64,000 nucleotides of DNA, taken from Nitrosomonas sp. (lineage in GTDB: Bacteria > Pseudomonadota > Gammaproteobacteria > Burkholderiales > Nitrosomonadaceae). The stretch spans positions 4,141 through 68,140 of the forward strand of contig NZ_JAYUWI010000118.1 of NCBI RefSeq assembly GCF_043753625.1, read 5' to 3'. Shown one piece after another: positions 3,760-56,811 of the stretch. Each line of letters begins with the position of its first letter. Positions within the stretch are counted from its first letter, which is position 1. The notes beneath the pieces were generated by a model. It searched no databases. It saw only the letters and a program-made list of their open reading frames with translations, and was not told the origin of the DNA. The translations under genes and the position numbers were made by a program.

Positions 3760-3769
3760 TTCCTCCGCC

Positions 3770-4315
3770 TCATTTTGTAGCCACGCTTCCACTACCGGGT
3801 AATTCAAAGAAAGTATATGAAATAGTCACCGTGTTTATCTCTGGTGGCAATCCAGGTTCAATTACGAATTGCACTGGCATTTGTCTAGTCTCATATGGCT
3901 TAAGCACTTGCTTCGTAAAACAAAAACATTCAAATTTTTTCAAATGTTTATCCAGAAAACGTGGGCTGTAACTGGGTATTGCCTGCCCATTTATTTCACG
4001 GTCTGAATTATTAGTAATTTCGTACATCACACTGATTGCCTCACCTGGATGAATACGAGCGCTGGATTGCAGTGGTCTAAATTGCCAAGGCAATCCTCGT
4101 GTGTTGGCATCAAATTCAACTGTAATCCAACGCGCTTCATCCACCCAGTTTTCTTTAATCAGAACATCCGGTTTTAGCAGATTATTAATTCCAGTTACTT
4201 CGCAAAATTTCTCATAAAATGGCACAAGCGCATAACCAAAAGCAAACATAATTAATGTGAAAACCAATAACTTTTTCAACATTGCTACATTGGCTTTTAG
4301 TAGGCTAGTTACCAT
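3770..4315 (-). CDS. ctaG: Cytochrome c oxidase assembly protein CtaG/Cox11
   Basis: YEKFCEVTGIN and copper-binding KFECFCF motifs. Confidence 0.94.
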   Translation of the reverse strand: MVTSLLKANVAMLKKLLVFTLIMFAFGYALVPFYEKFCEVTGINNLLKPDVLIKENWVDEARWITVEFDANTRGLPWQFRPLQSSARIHPGEAISVMYEITNNSDREINGQAIPSYSPRFLDKHLKKFECFCFTKQVLKPYETRQMPVQFVIEPGLPPEINTVTISYTFFELPGSGSVATK

Positions 4316-4433: not shown

Positions 4434-6020
4434 TTATTTAATAACTGGTGGTGTTTCAAAGGTATGGTATGGCGCTGGTGATGGTAAATGCGTCCATTCC
4501 AATGTTGTTGCACCATCCCATGGCATCTGCGAGGCTTTTTCACCCTTACGTATACAATCAATCACGAGGTAAAGGAAAAGAAGCTGCGTTAGTCCAAATC
4601 CAAAGGCACCGAGACTAGAAATCATATTAAAATCTGCGAATTGTAGATTGTAATCCGGGACTCTACGCGGCATACCAGCCAATCCTAAGAAATGCTGAAC
4701 AAAGAATGTCATGTTAAAGAAAAACATCGATAGCCAGAAATGCCATTTGCCGAGCGTTTCACTGTACATATGGCCGGTCCATTTTGGAATCCAATAATAT
4801 ACCCCAGCAAATAAGGCAAATAAGGCACCTGACACGAGAACATAGTGGAAATGGGCAATTACATAGTATGTATCCTGTACTTGAATATCAATAGGAACAA
4901 TTGCGCAAATCACACCACTAAAACCACCGATTACAAACAAGAAAATAAACCCGATTGAAAATAACATCGGTGTTTCAAATGTCATTGAACCGCGCCACAT
5001 CGTGGCTGTCCAGTTAAACACTTTAACCGCTGTTGGCACAGCAATCAACATTGTCGCGTACATAAAGAATAGCTGACCAACTGCTGGCATCCCTGCTGTA
5101 AACATATGATGCGCCCATACAACACAAGATAAAATCGCGATTGATGCCGTAGCATAAACCATTGATGAATAACCAAATAATGGCTTTCTTGAAAAAGTTG
5201 GAATTATTTCAGAAACAATACCAAAAGCTGGCAAAATCATGATATAAACTTCTGGGTGCCCAAAAAACCAGAAAATATGCTGAAACAGTACTGGGTCACC
5301 CCCGCCAGCTGCATTGAAGAAGCTTGTACCAAAATGACGATCTGTCAACAACATAGTTACGACACCAGCCAAAACCGGCATCACCAAAACCAGCAAATAG
5401 GCAGTGATCAACCATGTCCATACAAACATTGGCATCTTCATCAATGTCATCCCTGGTGCACGCATATTTAAAATGGTCGTAATGATATTAATTGAGCCCA
5501 TAATTGAGGAAGCACCCAATACATGAACTGAAAAAATCATTAGATCCACACCCAGACCACCTTGGGTTGAAAGTGGTGGATAAAATGTCCAACCACCTGC
5601 TGCTGCACCACCCGGTACAAAAAATGAACCAATCAACATAGTAGCCGCCACTGGCAGCAACCAGAAACTCCAGTTATTCATCCGAGCAAAAGCCATATCC
5701 GGCGCACCAATCATCATCGGCACTTGCCAGTTAGCAAAACCCACGAAAGCCGGCATAATGGCACCAAACACCATTATCAACCCATGCAATGTCGTAAATT
5801 GATTGAATAACTCAGGCTCTAAAATTTGTATGCCGGGCTGATATAGCTCCGCGCGAATCCCCATGGCCAAAAAGCCACCCACCATAAACATAGTAAAACT
5901 AAACCAAAGATACATCGTACCAATGTCTTTATGATTAGTCGTTTTAACCCAACGCATAATACCGCTGGGATGATGATCATCATGTTCGTGACCATGCTCG
6001 TCACCGTGTACTGCTGCCAT
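4434..6020 (-). CDS. coxA: Cytochrome c oxidase subunit I (A-family heme-copper oxidase)
   Basis: TTNHKDIG, WFFGHPEVYI, WAHHM and AHFHY ligand motifs. Confidence 0.97.
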   Translation of the reverse strand: MAAVHGDEHGHEHDDHHPSGIMRWVKTTNHKDIGTMYLWFSFTMFMVGGFLAMGIRAELYQPGIQILEPELFNQFTTLHGLIMVFGAIMPAFVGFANWQVPMMIGAPDMAFARMNNWSFWLLPVAATMLIGSFFVPGGAAAGGWTFYPPLSTQGGLGVDLMIFSVHVLGASSIMGSINIITTILNMRAPGMTLMKMPMFVWTWLITAYLLVLVMPVLAGVVTMLLTDRHFGTSFFNAAGGGDPVLFQHIFWFFGHPEVYIMILPAFGIVSEIIPTFSRKPLFGYSSMVYATASIAILSCVVWAHHMFTAGMPAVGQLFFMYATMLIAVPTAVKVFNWTATMWRGSMTFETPMLFSIGFIFLFVIGGFSGVICAIVPIDIQVQDTYYVIAHFHYVLVSGALFALFAGVYYWIPKWTGHMYSETLGKWHFWLSMFFFNMTFFVQHFLGLAGMPRRVPDYNLQFADFNMISSLGAFGFGLTQLLFLYLVIDCIRKGEKASQMPWDGATTLEWTHLPSPAPYHTFETPPVIK

Positions 6021-7466: not shown

Positions 7467-7646
7467 TCACACTAATTTAACCAAAAGCATAATAAATAAA
7501 AAAACAACAACGACGGGAATAACAAAACTCATCCAATCCGCCGATGTGCTCTTTGAGCTATTCCTCATCATATCCCGGGTAGCTGGTAACAGGATAATAA
7601 TAAACATCACTAGCGCCAAAGCAGAAACAATTTCCATCCAGTCCAT
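7467..7646 (-). CDS. 59-aa two-TM small membrane protein (below the ORF-track cutoff)
   Basis: MDWMEIVSALALVMFIIILLPATRDMMRNSSKSTSADWMSFVIPVVVVFLFIMLLVKLV*; preceded by AGGAAGAGGG. The + strand track ORF 7441-7662 is its shadow. Confidence 0.75.
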   Translation of the reverse strand: MDWMEIVSALALVMFIIILLPATRDMMRNSSKSTSADWMSFVIPVVVVFLFIMLLVKLV

Positions 7647-7695
7647 ATCGCCCTCTTCCTGAATGTCTTCTTCTACAAAACCCTTTTGTCCAAAA

Positions 7696-7722
7696 CAAAA
7701 CCCCGGTTTAACCGGGGTTTTG
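7696..7722. terminator. Intrinsic terminator after yccA
   Basis: CAAAACCCCGGTT-T-AACCGGGGTTTTG perfect stem with A/T tails. Confidence 0.8.
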
Positions 7723-7746
7723 AGTATTCATTCCTTTCACCGGAAA

Positions 7747-8418
7747 TTAATCGTCATTTCCCATAATACCCAATATTTGTAGCAAGCTAATGAAAATATT
7801 GAATATCGTCATGTACAAGCCAATGGTTGCCAACACATAGTTAGTTTCACCACCGTGAATAATGCGACTGGTGTCATACAAGATAAAACCGCTCATAATC
7901 ATGATGACTAAAGCTGATATCATCAATGACATGGCTGGTATCTGCAGGAATATATTTGCTAGTGCTGCCAATAGCACCAAAAGAAACCCCACCATTAAAA
8001 AGCCACCCAGAAAACTGAAGTCTTTTCGTGTAGCCAGTGCATATGCTGACAATCCCATAAATATGACCCCTGTGCCCCCTAACGACAACGTAATGATATT
8101 TCCACCATTAGGCAATGAAGCATACATACTTAGTATTGGTCCCAATCCAAATCCCAGCATCCCTGTAATGAGAAAAACAATTCCTATACCGGCTGATGAG
8201 TTAGCAAAACGAGGTAGAACAAACATGGCGATCACCATACCGCCAATAACAGAGATCATATAAGTCATCGGTGGCATATTCATGAACATTGAAAGTGCAG
8301 CAGTGAGGCCGCTGAACAATAATGTCAGGGATAAAAGCATATATGTACTGCGTAACACTTTGTTTGTCGCAATAGCCGACGATGATCTTTGAGCAACTGT
8401 TGAGTAATTTTGATCCAT
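7747..8418 (-). CDS. yccA: Bax inhibitor-1/YccA family membrane protein
   Basis: NKVLRSTYMLL, TRKDFSFLGGFL and GFILYDTSRIIHGGETNY; seven hydrophobic segments. Confidence 0.9.
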   Translation of the reverse strand: MDQNYSTVAQRSSSAIATNKVLRSTYMLLSLTLLFSGLTAALSMFMNMPPMTYMISVIGGMVIAMFVLPRFANSSAGIGIVFLITGMLGFGLGPILSMYASLPNGGNIITLSLGGTGVIFMGLSAYALATRKDFSFLGGFLMVGFLLVLLAALANIFLQIPAMSLMISALVIMIMSGFILYDTSRIIHGGETNYVLATIGLYMTIFNIFISLLQILGIMGNDD

Positions 8419-9002: not shown

Positions 9003-10049
9003 TTATAAGTTATTCTCTTCCCAGAAAGCGCCATTTAACCCATTTCTCGGCAAAGCGATGCCAAAATGCTGATAGGTCGCTGTTGTTGCCATACGCCCCC
9101 TTGGCGTACGCTTCAAGAATCCTTGCTGAATCAAATAAGGTTCTAGCACATCTTCAATTGTGTCACGTTCTTCACTAATTGCCGCTGCGAGATTATCCAC
9201 ACCAACTGGCCCCCCACTAAATTTTTCTATTACAGCCAACAACAACTTTCGATCCATGATATCCAACCCGATTGCATCCACATCCAACATGCTTAAAGCT
9301 GCATCGGCTACTGCATGAGTCACATGCCCATCAGCTTTAACTTCAGCAAAATCACGCACACGACGCAGTAATCGATTAACAATCCGTGGCGTACCGCGCG
9401 AGCGACGCGCAATTTCAAATGCACCGTCGGGTGATATTTCCACTTTCAATAGCCCAGCAGATCGGATGACAATTTTGCAAAGCTCTTCCGGCGTGTAAAA
9501 TTCCAATCGCGAAACAATACCGAAACGATCGCGCAATGGGTTAGTAAGCATACCTGCGCGTGTAGTAGCGCCGACCAGAGTAAATGCGGGCAAATCCAAT
9601 TTCACAGAACGTGCAGCTGGTCCCTCACCAATCATAATATCAAGTTGGTAATCTTCCAGCGCCGGATAAAGTATCTCCTCGACCATCGGAGACAGGCGAT
9701 GTATTTCATCAATAAATAAAACATCATTAGGTTCCAGGTTTGTGAGCAAAGCTGCCAGGTCACCCGGACGTTCTAAAACCGGACCAGATGTTTGGCGCAA
9801 ATTAACACCCATTTCTCTGGCAATGATATGTGCAAGTGTAGTTTTACCTAAACCTGGCGGACCGAATAACAAAACATGATCAAGCGCTTCATGGCGATTT
9901 CTTGCTGCTTCAATGAATATCTGCAGTTGCCCACGAATCTTTTCCTGACCGACATATTCTTCCAGTTGTTTTGGGCGTAGCGCCCGTTCCAGAATTTCTT
10001 CCTGGGATGATGCAGGTGCTGCGGCAACAAGTCGATCTGTTTCAATCAT
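9003..10049 (-). CDS. ruvB: Holliday junction branch migration ATPase RuvB
   Basis: [12 protein letters not shown], Walker [17 protein letters not shown] and SRGTPR. Confidence 0.98.
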
Positions 10050-10073
10050 TCATTAGCCCAAGTTACTTTCTTG

Positions 10074-10658
10074 TTACTTTTCCTTAGATAATAGTTGCAA
10101 TGCTTGCCGTATGCCATCGGACACGGTTGCATTAGACGCTATTTTCTTGATGGCCCAATCTGCTTCCCTGTCATTATAACCTAGTGATAACAATGCATTG
10201 AGTATGTCACTGTCATTAGTTGGCGTAGATGGGCTCTGATCTAAATTGATCCCTGTAGTGCCCAGCTTATCCCGCAACTCCAGCAGTAAGCGCTCAGCCG
10301 TTTTTTTCCCGATACCGGGCACTCGGATGAGTCGTGTACTATCCTGATCTTCCACAGCACGATACAAATCAGGCACACTCAAACCTGATAAAAGAGCCAA
10401 CGCAGTTCTTGCACCTACACCCGAAATTTTTATCAGCTGGCGAAAAGTCTGGCGCTCAGATTCCGTTGCAAAACCAAACAACAAATGCATATCTTCACGT
10501 ATCACAAGATGCGTATACAATGTTGCTTGCACACCGATCGCCGGAAGGTCATAAAAAGTACTCATTGGCACATCTATTTCATAACCAATACCCCGCACAT
10601 CCAACAGTACTTGCGGGGGGCGCTTTTCGAGCAAAATTCCGGTTAATCGCCCTATCAT
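10074..10658 (-). CDS. ruvA: Holliday junction DNA-binding protein RuvA (start reassigned to ATG 10658)
   Basis: MIGRLTG start, [10 protein letters not shown] and [12 protein letters not shown] HhH motifs; ATGA overlap with the ruvC stop. Confidence 0.97.
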
Positions 10659-11188
10659 ACTAAACGCCCACGTTTCATGCGGTAGCCTGTTGTTGCAATC
10701 TTCCCCAGTCCCATGCCCCCATGGGCGTGACATATCGCGCAAGCCAAAGCATCTGCCGCATCAGCACTTGGGCTGCCAGCCAGATTAAGTAACCGCATAA
10801 CCATTTCCTGTACTTGATCTTTTTTGGCATGACCATTACCCACTACGGCTTGTTTTATTTGCAACGCAGTATATTCAGCCACGATCAGATCATTCAGCAC
10901 TGCTGCGCAAATAGCCGCGCCACGTGCCTGACCTAGTAATAATGTAGACTTGGGATTGATATTGACAAAAACTTGCTCTATGGCAACGTGCCCGGGTTGA
11001 TATTGCGTGATGACTTCACTTAAATTATTCAGAATTAACTTGAGACGAGAAGGCAATTCACCTTCAAAAGTTTTAACACTGCCACTGCTGACATAGGTTA
11101 AATTACTTCCAATTTTATCGATCACGCCAAAACCGGTATTACGTAACCCAGGGTCTATGCCAAGAATACGGATTTTGTCACCTGCCAA
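10655..11188 (-). CDS. ruvC: Crossover junction endodeoxyribonuclease RuvC
   Basis: ILGIDPG, AIEQVF, LGQARG and DAADALA motifs. Confidence 0.97.
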
Positions 11189-11196
11189 TATAGCTC

Positions 11197-11922
11197 TTAT
11201 TCATCAAGAATTGCTGTGGTGTATACATTCTGTACATCATCAAGATTTTCCAAAGCATCCAATAATTTTTGCATTTTTACAGCATCATCACCGGTTAATA
11301 CAGCCTCATTGCTTGGTTTCATCGTCACTTCCGCTAACTCAGCCTTAAATCCCGCTTTCTCTAATGCTTCTTTAACGTTTATAAATTCATAAGGATCCGT
11401 AATTACTTCGATACTACTGTCCTCATTACTGATCACATCTTCGGCTCCTCCCTCCAAAGCGACTTCTATGAGCTTATCTTCATCAGTTCCTGGTGCAAAA
11501 ATAAATTGACCACAGTGTCTAAATAAGAAATTGACGGAACCGTCCGTACCCAGATTACCGCCATACTTCGTAAAAGCATGACGTACATCAGCCACAGTAC
11601 GAACACGATTATCTGTCATGCAATCTACCATTACAGCAGCACCCGCTATGCCATAGCCTTCATAACGAATTTCTTCATAATCAGCCCCATCCAGAGTGCC
11701 GCTGCCACGCTTAATCGCACGCTCCACATTGTCCTTCGGCATATTCTGATCGTATGCCTTATCCACCGCCAAGCGTAAGCGTGGATTACTATCTGGATCT
11801 CCGCCACCCATACGGGCAGCCACAGTAATTTCCTTAATAAGCCGAGTAAATACCTTACCGCGTTTAGCGTCTTGTGCGGCTTTTTTGTGTTTGATATTAG
11901 CCCATTTGCTATGACCTGCCAT
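11197..11922 (-). CDS. yebC: YebC/PmpR family protein
   Basis: [14 protein letters not shown] start; conserved position upstream of ruvC. Confidence 0.96.
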
Positions 11923-12064
11923 TTATCTGCGTCCTCTACGAAAGTAAATTTATATTACCACCCATAGCTTATGGATAAAGTACCAAACTCTAGCAGACAA
12001 TACAACCATCTGTTTCGTATAGCATGTTATCAGTTTTAATAACTCGATCTTTATCAAATCGTAT

Positions 12065-13921
12065 TTATTCCACCGTTACTGCTTTTGCAAGATTCCTTGG
12101 TTTATCAACATCAGTCCCTTTCACTAAGGCAACATGATAAGCCAATAGCTGAAGTGGTATTGTATGAAGAATTGGACTGAGTAAACCAGCATGCTCTGCT
12201 AATCGGATTACATGCAGATTCTCGCCTTGCGCTATCTGAGAATCTGCATCCGCAAACACATAGAGTTCACCACCTCGCGCATGCACTTCTTGCAGGTTCG
12301 ATTTTAGTTTCCCTAATAGCTGGTCATTGGGTGCTATTGCAACAACTGGCATTTCGCTATCTACTAAAGCTAACGGACCATGTTTTAATTCTCCAGCTGC
12401 ATAGGCTTCAGCATGTATATAAGAAATCTCCTTGAGCTTAAGCGCACCTTCCATCGCAACGGGATAATGAACACCGCGTCCAAGAAATAATGCGTGGCGC
12501 TTCTGTGCAAAGCTTTTAGCCCAAATTTTCACTTTCGGTTCGACTTGTAGTGCATGCTGCAGAGCTACCGGCAAATGGCGTAGCGCCATAATCATCCGCT
12601 GTTCATCTTCGATCGATAATTTATGGCGCATCTTTGCTAGTGTCACCGTTAGCAGTAGTAGTGATGCTAATTGCGTAGTAAACGCTTTAGTCGAAGCCAC
12701 GCCAATTTCTGGGCCGGCTCGGGTAAGAAACCGCAAATCAGTTTGCCGGATCAATGCACTTTCCGGCACGTTGCAAATGGCTAAACTGTATTGATGACCC
12801 AATTTCTTCGCATAACTCATTGCCGCTAGAGTGTCTGCAGTTTCTCCCGATTGAGAAATACCAACCACTAAAGTCGTCGGGTCTGCAATGGGGTCCCGAT
12901 AACGATATTCGCTCGCTATTTCAACATTGCATGGCAAACCAGCAACGGATTCCAGCCAATAACGAGCAACCAAGCCTGCGTGATAGCTGGTTCCGCAGGC
13001 CAGTATCAGAATGCCGCTGGTTTTATTAAATACTTTCTCAGCTTCACTACCAAATAAATTGGGTGAAATAGACTGAGCACTAAATACCATTTCAAGCGTA
13101 TTTGCCACAGCACTCGGTTGCTCAAATATTTCCTTTTGCATGAAATGTGCATACGGTCCAATTTCTATTGCTTCACTCGCCAGACTACTTTCATGAACCT
13201 TTCGCTCCACTTCTTGTACTAAAGCGCCATTAAGACAATTGACAATGTGATATCCATTGCATGTCAGTTCAGCGACATCGCCTTCTTCCAGATAAATCAT
13301 ATTCCTGGTTGCTTTTAATAATGCAGATGCATCTGAGGCCGCATAATTCCCGCTTTCACCCAAACCCAGCAATAATGGCGCTCCGTTACGTGCAACAACA
13401 AGCTTCTCAGGTCGGGCTTCCTCCATCACAGCAATTGCGTAAGCACCTTGCAATTCAGCAATAGACTCGCAAACCGCTTTTAATAAATCAGCGGTCCGCT
13501 TAAGATTAAATGCTATGAGATGTGCAATAACTTCGGTATCGGTATCCGATATAAATTCAAATCCTTCCGCCTGTAAGCGTTTGCGCATTACTTCATGGTT
13601 CTCAATTATTCCATTATGCACAATAGCGATTCTAGTATCTGTTCCGGCAGTTCCAGAGAAATGGGGATGTGCATTACGTTCTGATGGCGCTCCATGCGTC
13701 GCCCAGCGCGTATGTGCAATGCCTGCAAGTCCATGTGTTTTCTGTTTAATTGCGAGTTTCTGCAATTCGGTCACGCGATCTGTCGTGCGTAATCTTTGCA
13801 GGCCATTACACGTTACCACCAATCCGGCAGAGTCATACCCTCGGTATTCTAAGCGTAGCAACCCTTCCAACAACATCGGAACGACATTATCATTGGCTAC
13901 TGCACCAACTATTCCGCACAT
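12065..13921 (-). CDS. glmS: Glutamine-fructose-6-phosphate transaminase (start reassigned to ATG 13921)
   Basis: [24 protein letters not shown] and C-terminal [14 protein letters not shown]. Confidence 0.98.
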
Positions 13922-13982
13922 AGTACATTCTCCTCGCCACTCAAGCTGATAAATCAAAATCTACTGCATCAATAATTCTATT

Positions 13983-15356
13983 CTATACTTTTGGCTTCTG
14001 CGGACGCTTCCAGCCAGCAACACTCAGTTGCTTCGATCTGGATAAAGTAAGCTGACCTTCCGGTGTTTCCTTAGTGATAGTCGATCCAGCTCCGATTGTG
14101 GAACCTTTAGAAATTCTCACTGGCGCAATAAGCTGTGTGTCTGATCCGATAAATACGTCATCTTCTACAATCGTTTGATGCTTATTAGCCCCATCATAAT
14201 TACAAGTAATTGTTCCAGCACCTATATTGACATTCTTTCCTACAATAGAATCACCAATATAGCTTAAATGATTGGCTTTACTTCCCAAAGCGATCTGACT
14301 ATTCTTCACCTCGACAAAATTACCGATATGTACTCTGTTAGAAAGTTTGGTTCCAGGTCGAATTCGTGCATACGGTCCAATCTTGCAGCTTTCACCTATC
14401 TCTGTATCTTCAATCATGCTATACGGTAGTATAGTAGTGCCCGCATCTACCTTTACATTCTTCAATATGCAGTGCGCTCCCACTTTTACAGAATCACCCA
14501 GCTTAACCATTCCTTCAAAAATACAACTAATATCAATTTCAACATCCGATCCGCAAACAAGCTCTCCTCTTATATCAATTCGAGACGGATCTATCAAACC
14601 AACCCCCAGATACAAAAGCTTATCTGCACAGTGCCTTTGATAGATTCGTTCAAGCTCTGCAAGTTGAGACTTATTATTAACGCCCATTACCTCCCAAAGA
14701 TTTTTCGCTTGTGACGATGCGACTTGAATGCCTTGTTTAACTGACAAGGCAATGATATCGGTCAAGTAATATTCATGCTGCGTGTTTTTGTTTTCAATTT
14801 TTGGCAACCAGTTATGTAAATAATCATTGGGTATCAGCATTATGCCGGTATTAATTTCGCGGATCTCTTGTTGCTCAGTATTGGTGTCTTTTTGCTCTAC
14901 AATAGCTTTAATTGCTCTTGTTTCAGGATCGCGCATAATTCTGCCATAACCAAAAGGATTCCCGATCTCTGCAGTTAACAACACGCAATGCTTTTCTTCT
15001 GCTTTCGCTATTAATTTTTGCAATGTTTGAATGCTGATTAATGGCACGTCCCCATACAACACAAGCGTCAAACCATCTCTATCAAGATGCTGTAGTGTTT
15101 GCATTAGTGCATGTCCGGTACCCAATTGTTGCGCTTGCAGAACCCAAGTTAAATCATCGCCGACAATCGATTGCTTTACTATCTCCCCCCCATGTCCGAT
15201 GACAATACAGATTTTATCAGGTGATAGCAATCTGGCCGTGTTAGTAACATGCGTTAGCAATGAGCATCCTGCCAAAGTATGCAATACTTTTGGAAGAGAA
15301 GAGTGCATGCGTTTTCCTTCACCTGCTGCGAGTATTACAACATTAAGTTTAGTCAC
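13983..15356 (-). CDS. glmU: Bifunctional UDP-GlcNAc pyrophosphorylase/acetyltransferase
   Basis: ILAAGEGKRM, QLGTGHA, hexapeptide repeats and GAGTITCNYDG. Confidence 0.98.
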   Translation of the reverse strand: MTKLNVVILAAGEGKRMHSSLPKVLHTLAGCSLLTHVTNTARLLSPDKICIVIGHGGEIVKQSIVGDDLTWVLQAQQLGTGHALMQTLQHLDRDGLTLVLYGDVPLISIQTLQKLIAKAEEKHCVLLTAEIGNPFGYGRIMRDPETRAIKAIVEQKDTNTEQQEIREINTGIMLIPNDYLHNWLPKIENKNTQHEYYLTDIIALSVKQGIQVASSQAKNLWEVMGVNNKSQLAELERIYQRHCADKLLYLGVGLIDPSRIDIRGELVCGSDVEIDISCIFEGMVKLGDSVKVGAHCILKNVKVDAGTTILPYSMIEDTEIGESCKIGPYARIRPGTKLSNRVHIGNFVEVKNSQIALGSKANHLSYIGDSIVGKNVNIGAGTITCNYDGANKHQTIVEDDVFIGSDTQLIAPVRISKGSTIGAGSTITKETPEGQLTLSRSKQLSVAGWKRPQKPKV

Positions 15357-15555
15357 AATATTGAACTCCCTTTTTGGTTTTAAGTATATTCAATTCGACT
15401 CAATCAACTGTAATGAATATACACCCTTCATTTATAAGGAACATAGTGTAAGGATATGATAGGAGTAAATTTTGTTCGCTCAATACTTTATCATTTATTA
15501 AGCGAACCATAGATATTTGGTTGAAAAAATCAGCCAAAATTCAGACAACAGAAAC

Positions 15556-15584
15556 AAAAAAGGCGACATACGTCGCCTTTTTTT
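15556..15584. terminator. Intrinsic terminator after the atp operon
   Basis: AAAAAAGGCGAC-ATAC-GTCGCCTTTTTTT. Confidence 0.85.
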
Positions 15585-15599
15585 CTTTCAGTATCTTAA

Positions 15600-16022
15600 T
15601 TAGTGTCTACGTTTTCTTAGTTTATCAATTGCGGCCAATTGCGCCATGGCTTCGATTAATTCTGCCTGGGCTCTCGCATAATCCAACTCAGACTCTTTGT
15701 TCTTCATAGCCTCTTCTGCTGCTCGTTTTGCTTCGATCGCCTTGGCTTCATCAAGATCATGACTGCGCACCGCAGTATCTGCCAGTATAGTAACAATATC
15801 AGGCTGAACTTCTAACATGCCTCCAGACACGTATATCAGTTCTTCTTCTTTTAATTGTGCTTTGATACGCACCATTCCAGATTTAATTCTTGTCAACATC
15901 GGAGTATGACGTGGGTAAATACCTACTTCACCCATTTGTGCTGGTGCAACTAAAAATTCCACTGGACCGGAATAAATAGATTCTTCAGCACTAACGATAT
16001 CAAGATGAAAAATAGCGCCCAT
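15600..16022 (-). CDS. atpC: ATP synthase F1 epsilon
   Basis: [11 protein letters not shown] and SGGMLEVQP; last atp gene. Confidence 0.96.
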
Positions 16023-48328: not shown

Positions 48329-48404
48329 GGCGAATTAGCTCAGTGGTTAGAGCAGCGGAATCATAATCCGTTGGTCCCCAGTTCGAATCTGGGATTCGCT
48401 ACCA
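48329..48404 (+). tRNA. tRNA-Met(CAT), most likely elongator
   Basis: 76-nt cloverleaf: GGCGAAT/ATTCGCT acceptor, AGCTCAGTGGTTAGAGC D-arm, GCGGA-ATCATAA-TCCGT anticodon arm, GTTCGAATC T-loop and encoded CCA. Confidence 0.92.
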
Positions 48405-49036: not shown

Positions 49037-50518
49037 TTAATCTGACAGCGCCGCTGCAATTTCTCTGAAACTGTTCAGCCCGGCTTCCAAGTTCTCGATA
49101 ATTTCACCCGCCAGCACATCCGGCTCGGGCAGATTGTCTAAATCGGCCAAACTCTTATCCTTTAGCCAAAAAATATCCAGACTGGTTTTGTCGCGCGCAA
49201 CAATTTGATCAAAGCTGAATTTGCGCCAACGGCCTTCCGGGTTGCCTTGCTCGCTCCATGTTTCCTTGCGCTCGTGGCGGTTGAGCGGGTTATAGCAAGT
49301 AATGAATTCCTGCAAATCCTCAAAACGCAGTGGTTTCTTTTTTAACGTGTGATGAATATTGGTGCGGCAATCGTAATACCAGACTTCTTTCGTCCACGGT
49401 TCTTTGCTGGCTTCTCGGTTATCGAAGAACAACACATTTGCTTTCACGCCATTAGCGTAGAAAATACCGGTAGGCAATCGCAAGATCGTGTGCAATTCTG
49501 TGGTTTCCAGCAGTTTCTTGCGTACTGTTTCCCCCGCCCCGCCTTCAAACAGCACATTATCCGGCACCACCACTGCCGCCCGCCCGGTGGTTTTCAACAT
49601 GGTGCGGATATGTTGCACGAAGTTGAGTTGTTTGTTGGAAGTTGTTGCCCAGAAATCCTGCCGGTTATAGGTCAGATCGTCTTTTTCCTGTTCTCCTTCA
49701 TCATTGGTGAAACTCATCGCGCTCTTCTTGCCGAACGGCGGATTCGCCAGCACGTAATCGAAGCGGCGGCCGGAATCCGCGACCAGCGCATCATTCGGGG
49801 AAATCATGCTGTCACCGTCGATCTCGCCAATGTTATGCAAAAACATGTTCATCAAAGCGAGGCGCCTCGTGCTCGCGACAATTTCATTGCCAAAAAACGT
49901 TTCGTGTTTGAGAAATGCTTTTTGTGTTTTATCCATCGCATGCTCGGCGACCAGAAAATCATACGCCGCCAGAAAGAATCCGCTCGTGCCGCACGCCGGA
50001 TCGGCAATGGTCTTGCCGGGTTCCGGGCGCACGCATTGCACCATTGCCCGGATCAATGCGCGCGGCGTGAAGTATTGCCCTGCACCGGACTTGGTATCTT
50101 CCGCGTTGCGTTCCAACAGTCCCTCGTAGATGTCGCCCTTCACATCAGCGCCCATCGTCACCCACTGGGTTTCGTTCACCATATCGATCAGGCGGTACAG
50201 TTTGGCCGGGTCCTGGATTTTGTTTTGCGCCTTGGTAAAAATCGTCCCCAGCATTCCCGGCTTTTTGCCCAGCTCCATCAGCAGCGTCACATAATGCACC
50301 TCCAGTTCCGCGCCACGCTTGAGCTTAAGGCTTTGCCAGTTGTACTCGGCAGGAATATCCACGGTGCGGTTATACGGCGGCTGGCTGTATTCATCCGCCA
50401 TCTTCAGGAAAATCAAATACGTGAGTTGCTCCAGATAATCGCCATAACCCACCCCGTCATCGCGCAACGTGGTGCAGAAACTCCAGACTTTGGAAACGAT
50501 GGATGCAGTTGCGTTCAT
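49037..50518 (-). CDS. hsdM: Type I R-M methyltransferase subunit
   Basis: YLEQLTYLIFLKM, GQYFTPR, DPACGT and the N6-adenine motif NPPF. Confidence 0.95.
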   Translation of the reverse strand: MNATASIVSKVWSFCTTLRDDGVGYGDYLEQLTYLIFLKMADEYSQPPYNRTVDIPAEYNWQSLKLKRGAELEVHYVTLLMELGKKPGMLGTIFTKAQNKIQDPAKLYRLIDMVNETQWVTMGADVKGDIYEGLLERNAEDTKSGAGQYFTPRALIRAMVQCVRPEPGKTIADPACGTSGFFLAAYDFLVAEHAMDKTQKAFLKHETFFGNEIVASTRRLALMNMFLHNIGEIDGDSMISPNDALVADSGRRFDYVLANPPFGKKSAMSFTNDEGEQEKDDLTYNRQDFWATTSNKQLNFVQHIRTMLKTTGRAAVVVPDNVLFEGGAGETVRKKLLETTELHTILRLPTGIFYANGVKANVLFFDNREASKEPWTKEVWYYDCRTNIHHTLKKKPLRFEDLQEFITCYNPLNRHERKETWSEQGNPEGRWRKFSFDQIVARDKTSLDIFWLKDKSLADLDNLPEPDVLAGEIIENLEAGLNSFREIAAALSD

Positions 50519-50537
50519 GTCTTTGCCCCGAATACTT

Positions 50538-50849
50538 CGTCATTCCCGCGTAGGCGGGAATCCAGCCTTACACCAAGTCCGACCATAAATCTTTCCATGT
50601 CGGATTCATCTTTTCGATCAAATTTATTTTCCATTGTCTATTCCACTTTTTAAGTTGCTCCTCGCGTTGAATCGCTGCCAGACTCGTTGAATCAGATTAC
50701 TGGTTACACCGATATACAAAGTGCCGTTATATTGGCTCGCCAGAATATAAACCGCAGCTTGTTTTCCCATTACGCAACCGTCCTCGTTTTTTTCACAGGC
50801 AAGGAATCAGCCCTTAATCACATGGATTCCCGCCTGCGCGGGAATGACG
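50538..50849. mobile_element. 312-bp cassette bounded by 27-bp inverted dRS3/REP-like palindromes and carrying a GIY-YIG relic
   Basis: CGTCATTCCCGCGTAGGCGGGAATCCA (50538-50564) and TGGATTCCCGCCTGCGCGGGAATGACG (50823-50849) are reverse complements with 1 mismatch. Confidence 0.7.
50568..50770 (-). pseudogene. GIY-YIG (UPF0213/YhbQ-like) nuclease, internally deleted and frameshifted
   Basis: ATG 50770 gives MGKQAAVYILASQYNGTLYIGVTSNLIQRVWQ. A different frame then gives IQREEQLKKWNRQWKINLIEKMNPTWKDLWSDLV*; the middle segment is missing at about 50674. Confidence 0.85.
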
Positions 50850-50912
50850 GCAAGGGCGCCCTTGCTACTTTCGACAGTTATTACCCTCTCTATTACCCTT
50901 ACTAAAGGGTAA

Positions 50913-51959
50913 TTACCCTTTCTTTTTCCATCGAGCCGCTGGACCTCTGCCCTGGCATTCGACTGCGTTTGCATTTTTCTGCTCTCGCAAAACACGACGC
51001 ACCATGTCTTTGCTCACACCGGGACAAGACTGCTCCACCTGAGCCACAGTAAATTCGCCCACAAAGCGATCGATAGCTACCAACACCAGATTGGTCTTCG
51101 AGCCGCGTGGCGCTTTCACTTCACCCACACGCTCGGCAAATTCGCGGCAAGCCATCTTGAGAATGGACAACACGTAGTTGATGTAAGGCCACGGGTCATG
51201 CTTGCCATCATGCCAACCCTGCGAGCTTTGCTCCAGCGTCTCGTAATAGCGATCCTTGTTTTCTTCGATCAAACGCTCAAGGCTGATATAGCGCCCCACC
51301 TCATAGCCCGATTGATAACACTGAAGCAAAAGCGCCAACCGCGACACGCGCCCGTTGCCGTCGCGGAAAGGATGGATGCACAGAAAATCCAGATTGAATG
51401 CCGCCATCGCAATCAGTGGATGCGCCCAACGATCATCCAGGCAATACTGCCAATCAGTAACCAGCTCCATCATTGCGGCAGGGGTGCCCGCCGCAGACAC
51501 CGGGCGGAAACGAACCCGTTCACGACCATTCGCATAACGCTCGATGATGTCGCCGTCTTTTTCCTTGTATTGGCCCGCATCCCAGATTTGCCCGCGCGCC
51601 AGCCGGTGCAGCTCGCATATCGCCGTCTCGCTCACCGGCATGCGCGCAGCCCCTTCATGAATGAGCTTCAACGCATCGCGATAGCCGCGCACCTCTTCCT
51701 CGTCGCGATCCCGGAACAAAGGCCTAGCCGCAACCAGCAACTCGCGCACCCGCGACGGATCAACCGACACGCCTTCGATACGATTGGAAGAAACCGCGCT
51801 CTCGATCAGCGCATGCTCGCGCAAGGTCTTCAGCCGCTGCGGCGACTGCTGCGTATAAAGCGTCTGCTTGCCGCGGAATTCGCCGAGATCGGCGAGATAC
51901 CAGGACGTGCTGGCGGGAATGGAAAAATCTTTTAAAGCAAAAAGGCGCAGCGTGTTCAT
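50913..51959 (-). CDS. Fic-domain protein with N-terminal inhibitory helix and C-terminal HTH-like tail
   Basis: HPFRDGNGRVSR catalytic motif and SSNRIEG inhibitory motif. Confidence 0.92.
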   Translation of the reverse strand: MNTLRLFALKDFSIPASTSWYLADLGEFRGKQTLYTQQSPQRLKTLREHALIESAVSSNRIEGVSVDPSRVRELLVAARPLFRDRDEEEVRGYRDALKLIHEGAARMPVSETAICELHRLARGQIWDAGQYKEKDGDIIERYANGRERVRFRPVSAAGTPAAMMELVTDWQYCLDDRWAHPLIAMAAFNLDFLCIHPFRDGNGRVSRLALLLQCYQSGYEVGRYISLERLIEENKDRYYETLEQSSQGWHDGKHDPWPYINYVLSILKMACREFAERVGEVKAPRGSKTNLVLVAIDRFVGEFTVAQVEQSCPGVSKDMVRRVLREQKNANAVECQGRGPAARWKKKG

Positions 51960-52963
51960 GTCGTTTTCCTTTTTGTCTTGAGCGCAGTATCAGCCCGCTC
52001 CGCCTTGATGCGCGTCAGGAGCACCGAAGCGGGTTCGTCGTTTGGATCTTGCGGCACCAGTTGGCCGGAGAAGGCTTTTTTCAGGATGGATTGGCGCAGG
52101 GCTTCGGCTTGCTGTAAGGCGGTGGTGATGGTTTGGTCGAGTTGGTCGGCTTCGGAAAGGCGTGATGCCAAAGCTTCATTGACTGCTTCAGCTTCTATTT
52201 CAGAACAAATAGGCACAACGATTGACCGGATTCTGTCCTGTCCAATATTGCGCATGGATTCTTGATTACCAGTCGATAGCCGCATGATTTGGTTGCGCCC
52301 AATTCGGCTGCCTAGATACTGAAGAAAGTATTCCTGAGAAAACCCATCGAATCTAATGCGAAGCGTTTTATCACTCAGCATAATTTTCTTGGTTACCTTC
52401 CTTGCAATGACGCAGGCACCTACGAGATCAATAGTATTAGCTCTGCTTAAAATGAAATCGCCGCTCCGAATTAAATAGGCTTCATTTTCTTTCGAGGTGT
52501 CAGTGCAGGTCTTGCTTTCCGATTCATCATATTCACCCCACGTCACTGCACTTACTTTTGCCACACCTATTTCATTAGCACGCGGCTCACGTTCGTCACA
52601 CTTAAAACTTTTTCCTGCATCAATCGAATCAATGAAGTCGCCCAATTTGCACCACCTCCACCCCGCCGGCAGTTCGGGCAATTCGGCCAGTTCTTCGACG
52701 GTGAGTGGCGGCAGGAATTTCGGGGGCTTGGGTTTTGAAATCCCTCCTCGCTCCCCTTTTTCTAAGGGGGGGATGGGCGCGGTGCTGGCTGGCTTCCCTC
52801 TTTGTAAAAGGGGGATAGAGGGGGATTTTTCCCAGTCGGCGAGTTGTTGCTGGTAGCGTTGTGCGCGCTCTTGCTGGATGCGTTTCAGCAAAGTGTCGGC
52901 GGTTTCGAGGGGTTTGTCATTCCCTGTCACCCTCGCGAAGGCGGGGGGCAGGCGGGAATCCAT
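51956..52963 (-). CDS. hsdS: HsdS C-terminal half (linker, TRD2 and conserved helix); part of frameshift-split hsdS
   Basis: LPELPAGWRW, TRD and QALRQSILKKAFSGQLVPQDPNDEPAS; a possible ATG at 52963 lies inside the repeat. Confidence 0.8.
   Translation of the reverse strand: MDSRLPPAFARVTGNDKPLETADTLLKRIQQERAQRYQQQLADWEKSPSIPLLQRGKPASTAPIPPLEKGERGGISKPKPPKFLPPLTVEELAELPELPAGWRWCKLGDFIDSIDAGKSFKCDEREPRANEIGVAKVSAVTWGEYDESESKTCTDTSKENEAYLIRSGDFILSRANTIDLVGACVIARKVTKKIMLSDKTLRIRFDGFSQEYFLQYLGSRIGRNQIMRLSTGNQESMRNIGQDRIRSIVVPICSEIEAEAVNEALASRLSEADQLDQTITTALQQAEALRQSILKKAFSGQLVPQDPNDEPASVLLTRIKAERADTALKTKRKTT
52738..52828. repeat. In-frame palindromic insertion in hsdS (PPLEKGG-type family)
   Basis: AAATCCCTCCTCGCTCCCCTTTT ... 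AAAAGGGGGATAGAGGGGGATTT inverted arms, each with an internal CCCTTT/AAGGG hairpin; encodes KSPSIPLLQRGKPASTAPIPPLEKGERGGI. Confidence 0.75.
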
Positions 52964-53005
52964 GTCGTTCAAAGGCTGGCCCCCCCCCCCTTCGCGGGGG
53001 TGACG
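52916..53005. repeat. Composite dRS3/REP-like palindromes inside hsdS with a C11/G11 homopolymer at 52980-52990
   Basis: GTCATTCCC-TGTCACCCTCGCGAAGGCGGGGGG-CAGGCGGGAATCCAT ... GG-C11-TTCGCGGGGGTGACG. Confidence 0.85.
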
Positions 53006-53661
53006 TTCCGCTCCGCGCGCCACTGCGCGGTGAGTTTGCCCTCGAACGCATGTTTCAGCAGCGCTTGGCGATACACCTTGAGCTGTAATTGGGCGGTTTT
53101 CAGGTTTTCGATGCCCTTATCCAGCTCGGAAAACAGTTCTTCAATTTTGGCGACGATGCGGTGTTGTTCGTTTGTGGGTGGTAGCGGAACATCACAGGCA
53201 CTCAGGTAAGGAGTTGTCACGCGCCGCTGACCAACCGCACCAGACATATTGTGTTCTGCCTGGCGACGAAAGGCTTGAGATGATACGAAGTAGTAAATGT
53301 ACTTTGCGTTCACTCCAGATAGTGCACGAAGAACATGAAATTCGGTTGAACCAAAGCCAATACCATTTATGATTTCTGGCACTACAGCCATTTTCCCATT
53401 TTCCATACAGGGAGTTATCTTGGCAAATAGAACATCCCCTTCACAAAAAGGCGTGTAACCTTTTTTTACTTCCGAAAATTTGCGCTTACCGCCAACATCA
53501 ATTATTCCGCTTTCAGCTTGCACGGCTGGCATCGGTACAAATGAAACCTCTAAATCATCAGGAATACCAGCTTTATCAAGTGTCGGGTTTACAGAGACTA
53601 CTTCAGAAATCTTAGCATCACACCAAGCATGGGGTCGCCCGTTAACATTTACTTTCATCAC
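52969..53661 (-). CDS. hsdS: HsdS N-terminal half (TRD1 and conserved helix), ending just after the G11 tract
   Basis: LFAKITPCMENGK, PLPPTNEQHRIVAKIEELFSELD and YRQALLKHAFEGKL; start overlaps the hsdR stop. Confidence 0.88.
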   Translation of the reverse strand: MMKVNVNGRPHAWCDAKISEVVSVNPTLDKAGIPDDLEVSFVPMPAVQAESGIIDVGGKRKFSEVKKGYTPFCEGDVLFAKITPCMENGKMAVVPEIINGIGFGSTEFHVLRALSGVNAKYIYYFVSSQAFRRQAEHNMSGAVGQRRVTTPYLSACDVPLPPTNEQHRIVAKIEELFSELDKGIENLKTAQLQLKVYRQALLKHAFEGKLTAQWRAERNVTPAKGGGASL

Positions 53662-56471
53662 CCCACCAACACTTCATTCAACTCATCCAGCAACGGTTCC
53701 ATCCTTGCCCCAAACAACTGATGCATCCTGCCCAATCCGCCTTGTGCGTCGAACGGCGACATTTCCAGATCGTCGCGTTCGATGTGGAAGGAGTTAGCAA
53801 CGTGGTCGCGGATCATGTGCAGCCAGTTCATTTGCTCTTCGTTGAACTTCTCACCGCTGCCGGCGTGGCGTTGCATAATCCAGCTTTGGAAGTTGCGGCG
53901 TACGGTGTCGTCGAAGGGGGTTAGGGTTTTGTCCCAACCGCATACACGACGAATCAGTGCGACCAGTGTCGTGAGCTCATTGACTGGATTTCCGCCTGCC
54001 CCCCGCCTTCGCGAGGGTGACAGGGAATGGCGGGATTCCAGTTGTTGATACGCTTGCCACACGCTCAGTGGCGCGAGTTTGGGTTTGTCGGTTTTGAGTT
54101 TATCCAGCACTTGGCGGATCAGGGCGTAGCTGAGTTCACGCCTGCGATACGGCTGGCTGAAAAAGATGGTCAGTGCGGCAATGCTGTCTTGATTCGCCTT
54201 CAGGTAACCGGCAAATTCATCGGTTAAAGCTTGCGCATTGTTGGCGGCATCTTTGTCCCATTCGGCGCGCAACATTGTGTCGATGTTGTCGTGGTCGATG
54301 GTTTGTTCCTTGTCGCGGCGGATGGATTCGATGAGTTCGACCAGTTCGCCGTTCAATACTTTCGCGGCTTCAGTTACTAATTGCTGTTGCGCTTGCTGGC
54401 GTTTGTCGTCGCCGGGGTCTGAGCCGATGGGGAGCTTTGCCAGTTCCAGCGCACGCGCTTCGATGTTGTCGGCGTCGATTGCGCTGAATAATTTGCCGAC
54501 AAATTGGGTGAGTTCCATACCGCCAGCGAGTTCGCGGATGCGGCGCTGGTCATCGGTATCAAGTTGTTTGTTGAGCCGCGCCAGGCGACCGGCAAGCGAG
54601 CTGACAGTGTCTTCATCGGTTACGCCCATCATCACGCTCATCGCCAAATCCTTGAGTGGCACGCTGGGTTTAGTGATCAGCGGCTGGCTGGCGGTCTTAA
54701 GCGATTGGGTGACGCCGATGGCATCGACAATCACATAGTGGGTCTTGGCGCTGACGGCGGAGGGCGTGACTTTTTTCAGGTCGTCCATGTCCAGCGTGCG
54801 CGTGCCACGGCCTTTCATTTGCTCGAAATAGTTGCGGCTTTTCACGTCACGCATGAACACCAAACATTCCAGCGGCTTGACGTCGGTGCCGGTGGCGATC
54901 ATATCCACTGTGACGGCGATGCGCGGGTAATATTCATTGCGGAATTGCTGCAACACGGACTTGGGGTCTTCCTCGGTTTTGTAAGTGAGCTTTTTGCAAA
55001 AGGCGTTGCCCTCGTCAAATTCCTCGCGCACGGTCTGGATAATGTCGTCAGCGTGACTGTCTGTTTTGGCGAAGATCAGGGTCTTTGGCACTTCGCGGCG
55101 GCCGGGAAAAATCTCCGGCAGCTTGTCGCGGAAAGTACGAATGACGGTGCGGATTTGATCCGGGTTGACGATGTTGCGATCCAATTGCGTGTTGGAATAG
55201 GCTTCGTCTTCGTCCTGCATTTCCCAGCGCTTCTTGCGCGTGAGTTTTTCGCGTTTTTCCACTTGTTGCTTGGCGGTGATCTGCGCGCCTTGCTGGGTGA
55301 TCTGCGTTTCGATCACGTAGACTTCATTGCCAACGTTCACGCCATCCGCCACGGCCTTTTCGTGACTGTAATCGCTGACTACGTTTTTCTTGAAGAAACC
55401 GTAAGTGCGATTGTCCGGCGTGGCGGTTAAGCCGATCAGGCTGGCATCGAAATAGTCGATAACCTGTTGCCACAGGTTGTAGATGGAGCGGTGGCATTCG
55501 TCGATAAAGATGAAATCGAAGAATTCCGGCGGGACTTTTTCGTTATACACCACCGGCATCGGCGTTTTGGGTAGCGCCAATTCTGCAGGGTTAATTTCTT
55601 CGGCAGCATCATCGAGCGGCGTGTCTTTCAGGATGGAATACAAACGCTGGATGGTGCTGATGCACACCTGGCTATCCTTGGCGACAAAAGAAGATTTGAG
55701 GCGTTGCACGTTGTACAGCTCGGTAAACTTACGGTTATCGTCGAGCGGCACGTAGGACATCATTTCCTGCTCAGCCTGCTCGCCAAGATTTTTGGTATCG
55801 ACCAGAAACAGAATACGCTTGGCATTCGCATATTTGAGCAGGCGGTAAATTGAGGTGATGGCGGTGTAAGTTTTACCCGCGCCGGTTGCCATTTGAATCA
55901 GGGCGCGCGGACGACCCGCCTTAAACGAGGCTTCCAGATTGATGATGGCGGTTTCCTGGCAATCACGCAGGTGCAATTCCCTGGCGGGCAAGTGATTGGG
56001 ATTGAGCAGCGGAATATGGTGCAAACGTTCGCGCAGGCTGGCATCTTGCGCCAGCCTTTCTTTGAGCGTCTCGGGGCGGTGAAAATTGAATACTTCACGC
56101 GAGCGGGGTTTGGGATCACGGCCGTCGGTGAAACGGGTGATGATGCCGGTACTTTGGTAGAGGAAAGGCAAGGGTTCTTTGTTATTGACCCACTTGAGCG
56201 GAGCCGCCGCGTAGTCTTCAGTTTGAGTTTCATGCGCAGTGAGCCGCTGACCTTCTTCTTCACGCTTGGCTTCGATTACGCCGATTGCTTTTTTATCCAC
56301 GAACAGCACGTAATCCGCCGGACCGGCATCGGTCTGGTATTCACGCACCGCTTGGCCTAATCCAACATTCAGATCAATCTTTTTGGCTGATTGAACAACC
56401 CAGTTCGCTTGCCTAAGCAATGCATCAATGTTGTCACGGGCTTTTTGTTCTGGATTCTGGTTTTCGGTCAT
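53658..56471 (-). CDS. hsdR: Type I R-M restriction subunit (start reassigned to ATG 56471)
   Basis: ADY...IEAK nuclease motif, MATGAGKT, IDECHRS, TATP, QMKGRGTR and EcoEI-R-like C-terminus. Confidence 0.95.
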   Translation of the reverse strand: MTENQNPEQKARDNIDALLRQANWVVQSAKKIDLNVGLGQAVREYQTDAGPADYVLFVDKKAIGVIEAKREEEGQRLTAHETQTEDYAAAPLKWVNNKEPLPFLYQSTGIITRFTDGRDPKPRSREVFNFHRPETLKERLAQDASLRERLHHIPLLNPNHLPARELHLRDCQETAIINLEASFKAGRPRALIQMATGAGKTYTAITSIYRLLKYANAKRILFLVDTKNLGEQAEQEMMSYVPLDDNRKFTELYNVQRLKSSFVAKDSQVCISTIQRLYSILKDTPLDDAAEEINPAELALPKTPMPVVYNEKVPPEFFDFIFIDECHRSIYNLWQQVIDYFDASLIGLTATPDNRTYGFFKKNVVSDYSHEKAVADGVNVGNEVYVIETQITQQGAQITAKQQVEKREKLTRKKRWEMQDEDEAYSNTQLDRNIVNPDQIRTVIRTFRDKLPEIFPGRREVPKTLIFAKTDSHADDIIQTVREEFDEGNAFCKKLTYKTEEDPKSVLQQFRNEYYPRIAVTVDMIATGTDVKPLECLVFMRDVKSRNYFEQMKGRGTRTLDMDDLKKVTPSAVSAKTHYVIVDAIGVTQSLKTASQPLITKPSVPLKDLAMSVMMGVTDEDTVSSLAGRLARLNKQLDTDDQRRIRELAGGMELTQFVGKLFSAIDADNIEARALELAKLPIGSDPGDDKRQQAQQQLVTEAAKVLNGELVELIESIRRDKEQTIDHDNIDTMLRAEWDKDAANNAQALTDEFAGYLKANQDSIAALTIFFSQPYRRRELSYALIRQVLDKLKTDKPKLAPLSVWQAYQQLESRHSLSPSRRRGAGGNPVNELTTLVALIRRVCGWDKTLTPFDDTVRRNFQSWIMQRHAGSGEKFNEEQMNWLHMIRDHVANSFHIERDDLEMSPFDAQGGLGRMHQLFGARMEPLLDELNEVLVG
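53984..54041. repeat. Composite palindrome inserted in frame in hsdR
   Basis: CTGGATTTCCGCCTGCCCCCCGCCTTCGCGAGGGTGACAGGGAATGGCGGGATTCCAG; same core as the hsdS copy in the opposite orientation; read as SRHSLSPSRRRGAGGNP. Confidence 0.8.
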
Positions 56472-56811
56472 ATTTAAAACACACAAGAATCATATCTCTT
56501 GATCTGCTTCCCTATCTTTATTCAACACATGATAGCGTACAGTGCTTAAAAAGCCACGAAGTACCTTGCTACAAATGGTTTGCTTAAATCTTGTACTGTG
56601 AAAACCTTAAATTCATTAATACGGAATTTCTCTTTAGCAGCCCGCTGAATTTAAAGCTGAAGCTCTGTCACTGAGAGCGGAGATCAATCAGTATTGATGC
56701 ATTTTCCTAAAGGAGATATTTCAGGCATATTTAAGGATTTATTGTGCAAATTAGAAGTACTCCTTCTCCATGAGTAAATCTGATAGTATTTTTATTTCAG
56801 GATGAGAACCC

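Follow-up and report, generated by a model that had tools for sequence, protein, structure and literature searches.

The 312-bp unit at positions 50538–50849 of the window (the whole 64-kb stretch of DNA analysed here) consists of two inverted 28-nt hairpins and, enclosed by them, a minus-strand GIY-YIG pseudogene. We interpret it, with a probability of roughly 0.9, as a decayed NTS-ssn-NTS cassette of the Ssn family, which sits in a cargo slot of a type I restriction-modification (R-M) operon and has been inherited vertically as a dead copy. The cassette would once have encoded a 96-aa site-specific ssDNA endonuclease of this family with a single GIY-YIG domain, and the inverted hairpins flanking the gene would be two copies of the enzyme's 28-nt recognition site (NTS/SRM, with a dRS3 core). 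Slippage between CTGGCAGC repeats would then have deleted 88 bp, removing residues 33–60 (a helix and the third core strand) and shifting the frame, such that no active enzyme could be made, while the hairpins are still near-consensus. The cassette was probably one of many alternative cargoes in the hsdS-hsdM slot of a GC-rich type I R-M island, and seems to have been passed on vertically in its dead state.

The Ssn family and the NTS-ssn-NTS layout were described by Chenal et al. (Nat Commun 2025; PMC11893778), and the pairing of a GIY-YIG enzyme with the dRS3/NTS hairpin is therefore already known, published in March 2025. An earlier note on this DNA had proposed that the hairpins have the small GIY-YIG protein as their cognate enzyme, and experiments with Neisseria and Wolbachia homologues have demonstrated this pairing (PMC11893778). 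Its author thus inferred from sequence alone a pairing that needed a full experimental study, with no new biology in it. In that study, Ssn proteins are ∼95 aa long and consist of a GIY-YIG domain alone (the ssnA product has 94 aa and falls into cd10448, ‘GIY-YIG_unchar_3’), and the NTS, CGTCATTCCCGCGMAVGCGGGAATCYRG, is an oriented 28-nt hairpin containing dRS3. The NTS, or its degenerate form SRM, flanks ssnA in many phyla. The hairpin is bound by SsnA only as ssDNA and cut a few nucleotides upstream, with no cleavage of the reverse strand, dsDNA or RNA, and cutting and binding depend critically on the GTC that precedes the palindrome and the C that follows it. Site-specific ssDNA cleavage was demonstrated for the N. 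meningitidis, N. elongata, N. wadsworthii and Wolbachia enzymes, and the demonstrated role is that SsnA cuts NTS-bearing single-stranded transforming DNA and lowers its integration in N. meningitidis. The authors likened NTS-ssnA-NTS to IS200/IS605 transposases and REP/BIME elements, with mobility of the cassette put forward as a hypothesis only (PMC11893778).

In the window, the arms form an inverted pair of 27 nt (50538–50564 and 50823–50849) that lie 258 nt apart and are 96% complementary, in line with the near-perfect inverted ATTCCC-N8-GGGAAT pair with CGTC/GACG outer ends described in the earlier note. Each arm contains ATTCCC-N8-GGGAAT, a motif with no further exact copy in the 64-kb window, for which shuffles lead to an expectation of 0.01. 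Extended to 28 nt, the downstream arm (50538–50565, plus strand; CGTCATTCCCGCGTAGGCGGGAATCCAG) and the upstream arm (50822–50849, minus strand; CGTCATTCCCGCGCAGGCGGGAATCCAT) each show 1 mismatch to the NTS consensus, within the tolerance of ≤1 mismatch used in PMC11893778 and adopted here. Both also match the SRM, a degenerate pattern of the NTS, which has no other match in the window. Folded as ssDNA, each arm gives an 8-bp stem and a 4-nt loop. Their non-palindromic flanks are oriented, with CGTC 5′ and CCAG or CCAT 3′ of the palindrome, and the GTC before and the C after the palindrome are kept in both. The CGTC ends point outward from the unit, towards hsdM in the downstream arm and towards fic in the upstream arm, a geometry that would place two cut sites just outside the cassette, on opposite strands. 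The relic ORF is separated from the upstream arm by 51 nt and from the downstream arm by 2 nt, inside the 500-bp limit used below for flanking hairpins. The window contains no repeat expansion; only two composite NTS copies were found in addition to the two canonical ones.

As GC-rich stem-loops between genes, the arms could also be generic intergenic palindromes (terminators or REP-like stabilisers) whose position round a GIY-YIG relic is coincidental. We consider this extremely improbable, given two exact dRS3 copies where 0.01 are expected, the presence of the same 28-nt sequence beside homologues in dozens of phyla with a 24-fold local enrichment, and the experimental demonstration that the hairpin is bound and cleaved (PMC11893778). 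No T-run follows either hairpin and a terminator scan called neither, and terminators were accordingly rejected as the identity of the arms.

The relic framed by these hairpins (50568–50770, minus strand) begins with an ATG at 50770, ends with a TAA at 50568–50570 and is spread over two frames: the N-terminal part, MGKQAAVYILASQYNGTLYIGVTSNLIQRVWQ, is in one minus-strand frame and the C-terminal part, AAIQREEQLKKWNRQWKINLIEKMNPTWKDLWSDLV followed by the stop, in another. The N-terminal part of the read-through relic matched Pfam GIY-YIG (E 6.6e-6), and an NCBIfam search with the relic gave no significant match. Using tblastn with an intact 96-aa relative, P0003, we obtained matches at 50770–50654 and 50681–50571. 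When read through the deletion, the relic aligned with a Neisseria musculi homologue at 54% identity (E 2e-30); the alignment spans 93 columns, of which the deletion gap takes up 28. Alignment to two intact loci (L003 and L007) revealed that 88 nt are missing between two copies of the direct repeat CTGGCAGC, the lone surviving copy of which marks the deletion junction (50674–50681, minus strand). Since 88 nt equal 29 codons plus 1 base, the loss of codons and the frameshift are one event; the relic now comprises 68 codons, to which 28–29 deleted codons have to be added. The lost residues 33–60 include a conserved His and, according to the secondary structure of the P0003 model, helix 34–45 and core strand 48–55. 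The catalytic core, which consists of Tyr6, Tyr17 and Glu64 in one frame, is not intact, as the Glu codon is out of frame. Judged from this lesion, the gene in the window is a dead family member and not a working enzyme. The earlier suggestion of a dead copy with about 30 codons deleted plus a frameshift was thus borne out, in the form of a single deletion.

The same 88-nt deletion was present in three other assemblies (L001, L002 and L091). L091 carries it unaltered, and L001 and L002 have an additional 1-nt insertion further on, which restores the frame and gives an annotated protein of 67 aa (P0001); a residual non-catalytic role is conceivable for this product.

Regarding the family itself, a word-indexed search with the read-through relic returned >6,000 proteins, the best of which were 96-aa GIY-YIG proteins of Nitrosomonas and Gallionella. 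The nearest intact relatives have 96 aa and PF01541 as sole domain (single-domain, <150 aa), and an exhaustive profile-free search with P0003 found 13,132 representative proteins at E ≤0.001. As homology reference, we used the Neisseria musculi homologue (L080), a proxy for the assayed N. meningitidis SsnA. P0003 is 69% identical to it (E 2e-48), the published family criterion being homology to Neisseria SsnA at E <1e-10 (PMC11893778), and Y6, Y17 and E64 of the N. musculi protein coincide exactly with the residues mutated in SsnA in that study. The AlphaFold model of P0003 has a moderate pLDDT of 71.6 and the order strand-strand-helix-helix-strand-helix. Its best PDB fold matches were all GIY-YIG proteins but weak (best E 0.024), namely UPF0213 protein BH0048 (1zg2), the I-TevI catalytic domain and the UvrC N-terminal domain. 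A sequence search of the PDB with P0003 gave spurious WD40-repeat matches only, and no solved Ssn structure was found. By extrapolation from homologues that are at most 69% identical, the intact enzymes of this Nitrosomonadales clade would likewise bind the hairpin only in ssDNA, with cleavage a few nucleotides to the 5′ side of the CGTC end, as shown for the Neisseria and Wolbachia homologues.

To place the window's layout within the family, we surveyed 80 loci from 80 species-level genomes encoding a relative of P0003 and searched for the SRM within 500 bp. At least one SRM was present within this distance of the gene in 60 loci (75%), and 37 (46%) had one on both sides; both percentages are underestimates, because the strict pattern misses the long-loop hairpins that flank the nearest relatives (L012–L019). 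The survey reproduces the corresponding published figures of 71% and 42% (PMC11893778). SRM density was 1.81/kb in the flanks and 0.077/kb beyond, a 24-fold difference, and the same NTS sequence occurs beside ssn in many phyla. The commonest orientation in the survey, upstream ‘+’ and downstream ‘−’ with CGTC outward, is also that of the window. Homologues are thus preferentially flanked by the repeat, which was the check proposed along with the original observation.

The cassette is embedded in a type I R-M operon on the minus strand, with the gene order hsdR, split hsdS, fic, framed relic and hsdM. The restriction subunit gene hsdR (53658–56486) matched Pfam ResIII, EcoEI_R_C and HSDR_N, and hsdS (51956–53661) consists of two overlapping frames (52969–53661 and 51956–53023) with Pfam Methylase_S on the first half. 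The cargo gene fic (50913–51959; Pfam Fic, 1.6e-15) is 95.7% identical to the L001 gene. The methyltransferase gene hsdM (49037–50518; Pfam N6_Mtase, 5e-71, and HsdM_N) has its start codon 20 nt past the outer end of the downstream NTS. Between cassette and fic lies a spacer (50850–50929) with a palindrome, GCAAGGGCGCCCTTGC, at 50850–50865 and GGGTAATTACCC-type repeats; it is conserved in L001, L091 and L095. The GGGTAATTACCC-type palindromic repeats (50877–50929) are located at the 3′ end of fic, reaching into its last codons. L001 has one more copy of them, and one repeat in the window was scored as terminator-like on the plus strand by the scan.

The nearest intact Ssn genes (78–88% identical to P0003), as well as the metagenome loci of P0003 itself, are located between hsdS and hsdM of orthologous operons, whose HsdM is at least 90% identical to that of the window. 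The content of the slot varies: we found ssn alone in L011, fic with a dead ssn in the window, L001, L002 and L091, ssn with DarT/DarG in L003–L006, and fic with a gene-less NTS doublet in L095. In many of 80 metagenomic loci found with HsdM, the slot is empty, the stop codon of hsdS overlapping the start codon of hsdM in the sequence ATGA. Other cargo among these loci included Schlafen/AlbA_2 (AlbA_2-HATPase), RhuM-Fic, PIN, HD phosphohydrolase, YhcG, DUF3800 and GIY-YIG-DUF4357 proteins. The hsdS-hsdM junction (50519–51955 in the window; loci L003–L006, L011 and L092–L161) is hence a cargo hot spot; in L003, the DarTG insert is preceded by a short stretch that repeats the 5′ end of hsdM. A precise-excision allele of the cassette was not found: L095 and one contig of a related population (X3) are without the gene but have other sequence in its place. 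Compared with the published Ssn/NTS system, the window shares the protein family, size class, 28-nt consensus, inverted layout, outward CGTC ends and conserved GTC and C, but differs in its inactivation by the 88-bp deletion, its Nitrosomonas-like host, the lack of NTS expansion in 64 kb and its location inside a type I R-M operon; R-M systems are not mentioned in the Ssn paper (PMC11893778). What this locus adds is that in Betaproteobacteria that oxidise ammonia or iron, one Ssn lineage travels as cargo within a type I R-M operon, and that dead ssn copies keep near-perfect hairpins.

This location raises the question of what the gene did for its host. Compatible with a decayed cassette, Ssn may have been domesticated as an ssDNA restriction adjunct in the type I R-M operon, targeting incoming ssDNA (from transformation, conjugation or ssDNA phage) and using the NTS for regulation or self-marking, with the function lost in the window. 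All of the closest intact ssn genes occupy the hsdS-hsdM slot of the orthologous operon, the other cargo of the slot is of the defence or toxin type (DarT/DarG, Fic, PIN, HD phosphohydrolase, Schlafen/AlbA_2 and YhcG), and an N6-methyltransferase gene is found 2 kb from ssn in several of the more distant loci. The effect of SsnA on transforming DNA in N. meningitidis also fits (PMC11893778). However, Ssn cuts only beside the NTS, a site that foreign DNA would seldom contain, which would make it a poor general defence. Furthermore, ssn is dead in 3 of the 16 ssn loci that hold the operon (L001–L014, L016 and L019), which points to weak selection; of the dead copies, L001 and L002 are near-identical, and those of the window and L091 are further copies. 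On balance, we regard such a host-serving role as rather doubtful.

The GC content of the 64-kb window is ∼44%, that of the R-M island ∼54%. The window is syntenic with a Nitrosomonas sp. MAG (GCA_019752415.1; L001), to which it is ∼93% identical at the nucleotide level, both within the island and in the chromosomal DNA on its flanks. As identity inside the island equals that outside, island and dead ssn were most likely inherited vertically. No Neisseria DUS was detected in the window and, together with the GC content and the match to the Nitrosomonas MAG, this led us to reject a Neisseria context. Public runs holding the sequence were sediment, wastewater and biofilter metagenomes. Just past the island lies a tRNA-Met gene (48329–48404); at the matching site, L001 carries an extra integrative element of ∼5.6 kb (10276–15925) with an integrase, DUF3987 and a primase zinc-ribbon, which is absent from the window.

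More far-reaching is the reading originally offered for this DNA when extended to the whole family, namely that NTS-ssn-NTS is an autonomous mobile element, in which Ssn excises or nicks the cassette and disperses NTS copies and doublets in the manner of RAYTs, the copy in the window being dead and stranded. Observations in its favour come from other genomes. L084 contains two copies 2.3 kb apart (7628–7982 and 9960–10314) that are 98% identical over exactly 355 bp, with homology ending at the outer hairpin ends, within ∼3 nt of the published cut position. In L074, two copies (1210–1610 and 3670–4070) are 85% identical overall, with identical hairpin arms and immediate surroundings, and the homology between L081 and L087 is confined to the unit. 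Inverted NTS doublets that enclose no gene were found in L014 and L095. The source metagenomes also contain them at high depth; there, the depth over the two NTS is ∼200× that of adjoining DNA (a community-wide signal) and many contigs join NTS(+) to NTS(−) across only 10–34 nt. The occurrence of the same NTS beside ssn in many phyla and the orthologous operons with an empty slot and ATGA overlap could be explained in the same way, and the hypothesis was itself raised in PMC11893778.

Several points speak against it. No target-site duplication was seen at the L084 ends, and recombination between dispersed NTS copies could yield the same sharp homology boundaries. In the clade of the window, different genera have the gene in the same operon at the same position, which argues for hitch-hiking rather than hopping, and the 64-kb window holds two canonical NTS only. 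With the NTS inverted, one cut would fall on each strand, whereas IS200/IS605 chemistry acts on the same strand. GIY-YIG nucleases act by hydrolysis and, unlike HUH transposases, form no covalent intermediate, leaving no evident rejoining step; indeed, we know of no strand-transfer step for a hydrolytic GIY-YIG nuclease. We therefore consider autonomous mobility possible but unlikely, and that Ssn spreads its repeats as RAYTs are thought to is unproven. The duplications ending exactly at the hairpins (L084 and L074) support mobility indirectly, and such hairpin-bounded duplicates, present in some genomes, are the kind of evidence that the question needs. Our literature search found no work on Ssn mobility after PMC11893778, and for GIY-YIG together with REP/RAYT only papers on fungal mitogenomes.

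The decayed Ssn cassette also resembles several other known systems. With REP/REPIN-RAYT systems it shares a small nuclease gene between inverted copies of a hairpin recognised as ssDNA, gene-less hairpin doublets scattered elsewhere, and covariation of enzyme and repeat between lineages. RAYTs are members of the IS200/IS605 transposase class; they are HUH Y1 (TnpA-like) tyrosine transposases, whereas Ssn is a hydrolytic GIY-YIG enzyme of unrelated fold and chemistry. As the protein is GIY-YIG by both Pfam and fold and no HUH Y1 transposase, the flanking by inverted hairpins makes the likeness to REP/RAYT an analogy only. As for insertion sequences, duplicates bounded by the unit were found in L084 and L074, but no target-site duplication was seen, and the copy in the window is single and dead. 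The dRS3/NIME arrays of Neisseria, an integration target of Nf filamentous prophages, share the 20-bp core ATTCCC-N8-GGGAAT; in contrast, the window has neither a NIME-like dRS3 array nor DUS, and its arms represent the longer, oriented NTS form. Finally, free-standing GIY-YIG homing endonucleases (I-TevI and the Seg proteins) have the same catalytic fold and likewise come as small, selfish-looking cassettes, but Ssn lacks a C-terminal DNA-binding domain, acts on ssDNA rather than dsDNA and has no intron or intein context.

Related palindromes had also been reported in hsdS and hsdR, and we recovered both, at 52916–53004 and 53984–54029 (minus strand), as NTS hairpins with a nested second hairpin. 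The hsdR element, a composite NTS-derived hairpin, is an in-frame insertion at the place where hsdR encodes SRHSLSPSRRRGAGGNP. It accounts for 10 aa relative to the L003, L004, L005 and L011 orthologues and for an 11-aa gap relative to L014 and L019, and is present in L001 and L002. The hsdS element is an NTS-derived hairpin doublet, in frame in the linker between the two target-recognition domains, and combines a hairpin with a GTCACCCCCGCG stem and an inverted NTS, the NTS arm of which holds the further nested hairpin. Its counterpart in L001 lies at 5775–5860, and the related X3 contig has a linker allele without the element. In the window, the doublet includes a C11 tract (52980–52990; G11 on the coding strand) that breaks the frame and sets the two hsdS halves in different frames; C9 or C12 would restore it. 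In L001, the orthologue reads GGCGGGGGCC here and encodes an uninterrupted HsdS of 551 aa, and contigs of a related wastewater population have C10 and C9 tracts. The C11 tract may thus reflect phase variation of the specificity subunit, or else a homopolymer assembly error.

In-frame insertion adding a short peptide to a coding sequence is reminiscent of the Rickettsia palindromic elements (RPEs), which insert in frame in Rickettsia protein genes. The elements in hsdR and hsdS are composite NTS derivatives, unlike RPEs, and the likeness is a resemblance rather than the outcome of a homology test. Hairpins nested in NTS hairpins recur in L091 (300–700), L003 (2818–2865) and L011 (9850–9900). 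In L091, the same 24-nt insertion is present in the loops of both arms of the dead cassette, in mirror symmetry, and L003, L011 and the hsdS and hsdR elements of the window carry a different insertion after ATTCCC. Such nested hairpins could have arisen through gene conversion between arms or through targeted insertion into the NTS.

One could go further and view these observations together, with a mobile cassette delimited by Ssn cuts immediately outside its two hairpins, and hairpins and doublets that insert alone, nest in NTS loops and enter hsdR and hsdS in frame, where hsdS would gain a hypermutable G/C tract acting as an on-off switch of the specificity subunit. If true, this would be a GIY-YIG-based analogue of REPIN/RAYT systems that remodels a type I R-M operon; we put it forward tentatively, as an unlikely reading. 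The NTS-derived in-frame insertions in hsdR and hsdS, the hsdS C11 tract and the hairpin-bounded duplications are minor additions to what was described in PMC11893778. The hsdS linker further contains, at 52740–52830, short GGGGG/CCCCC-rich palindromes encoding SPSIPLLQRGKPASTAPIPPLEKGERGGISKPKPP, which are common to L001 and look like a second in-frame repeat family.
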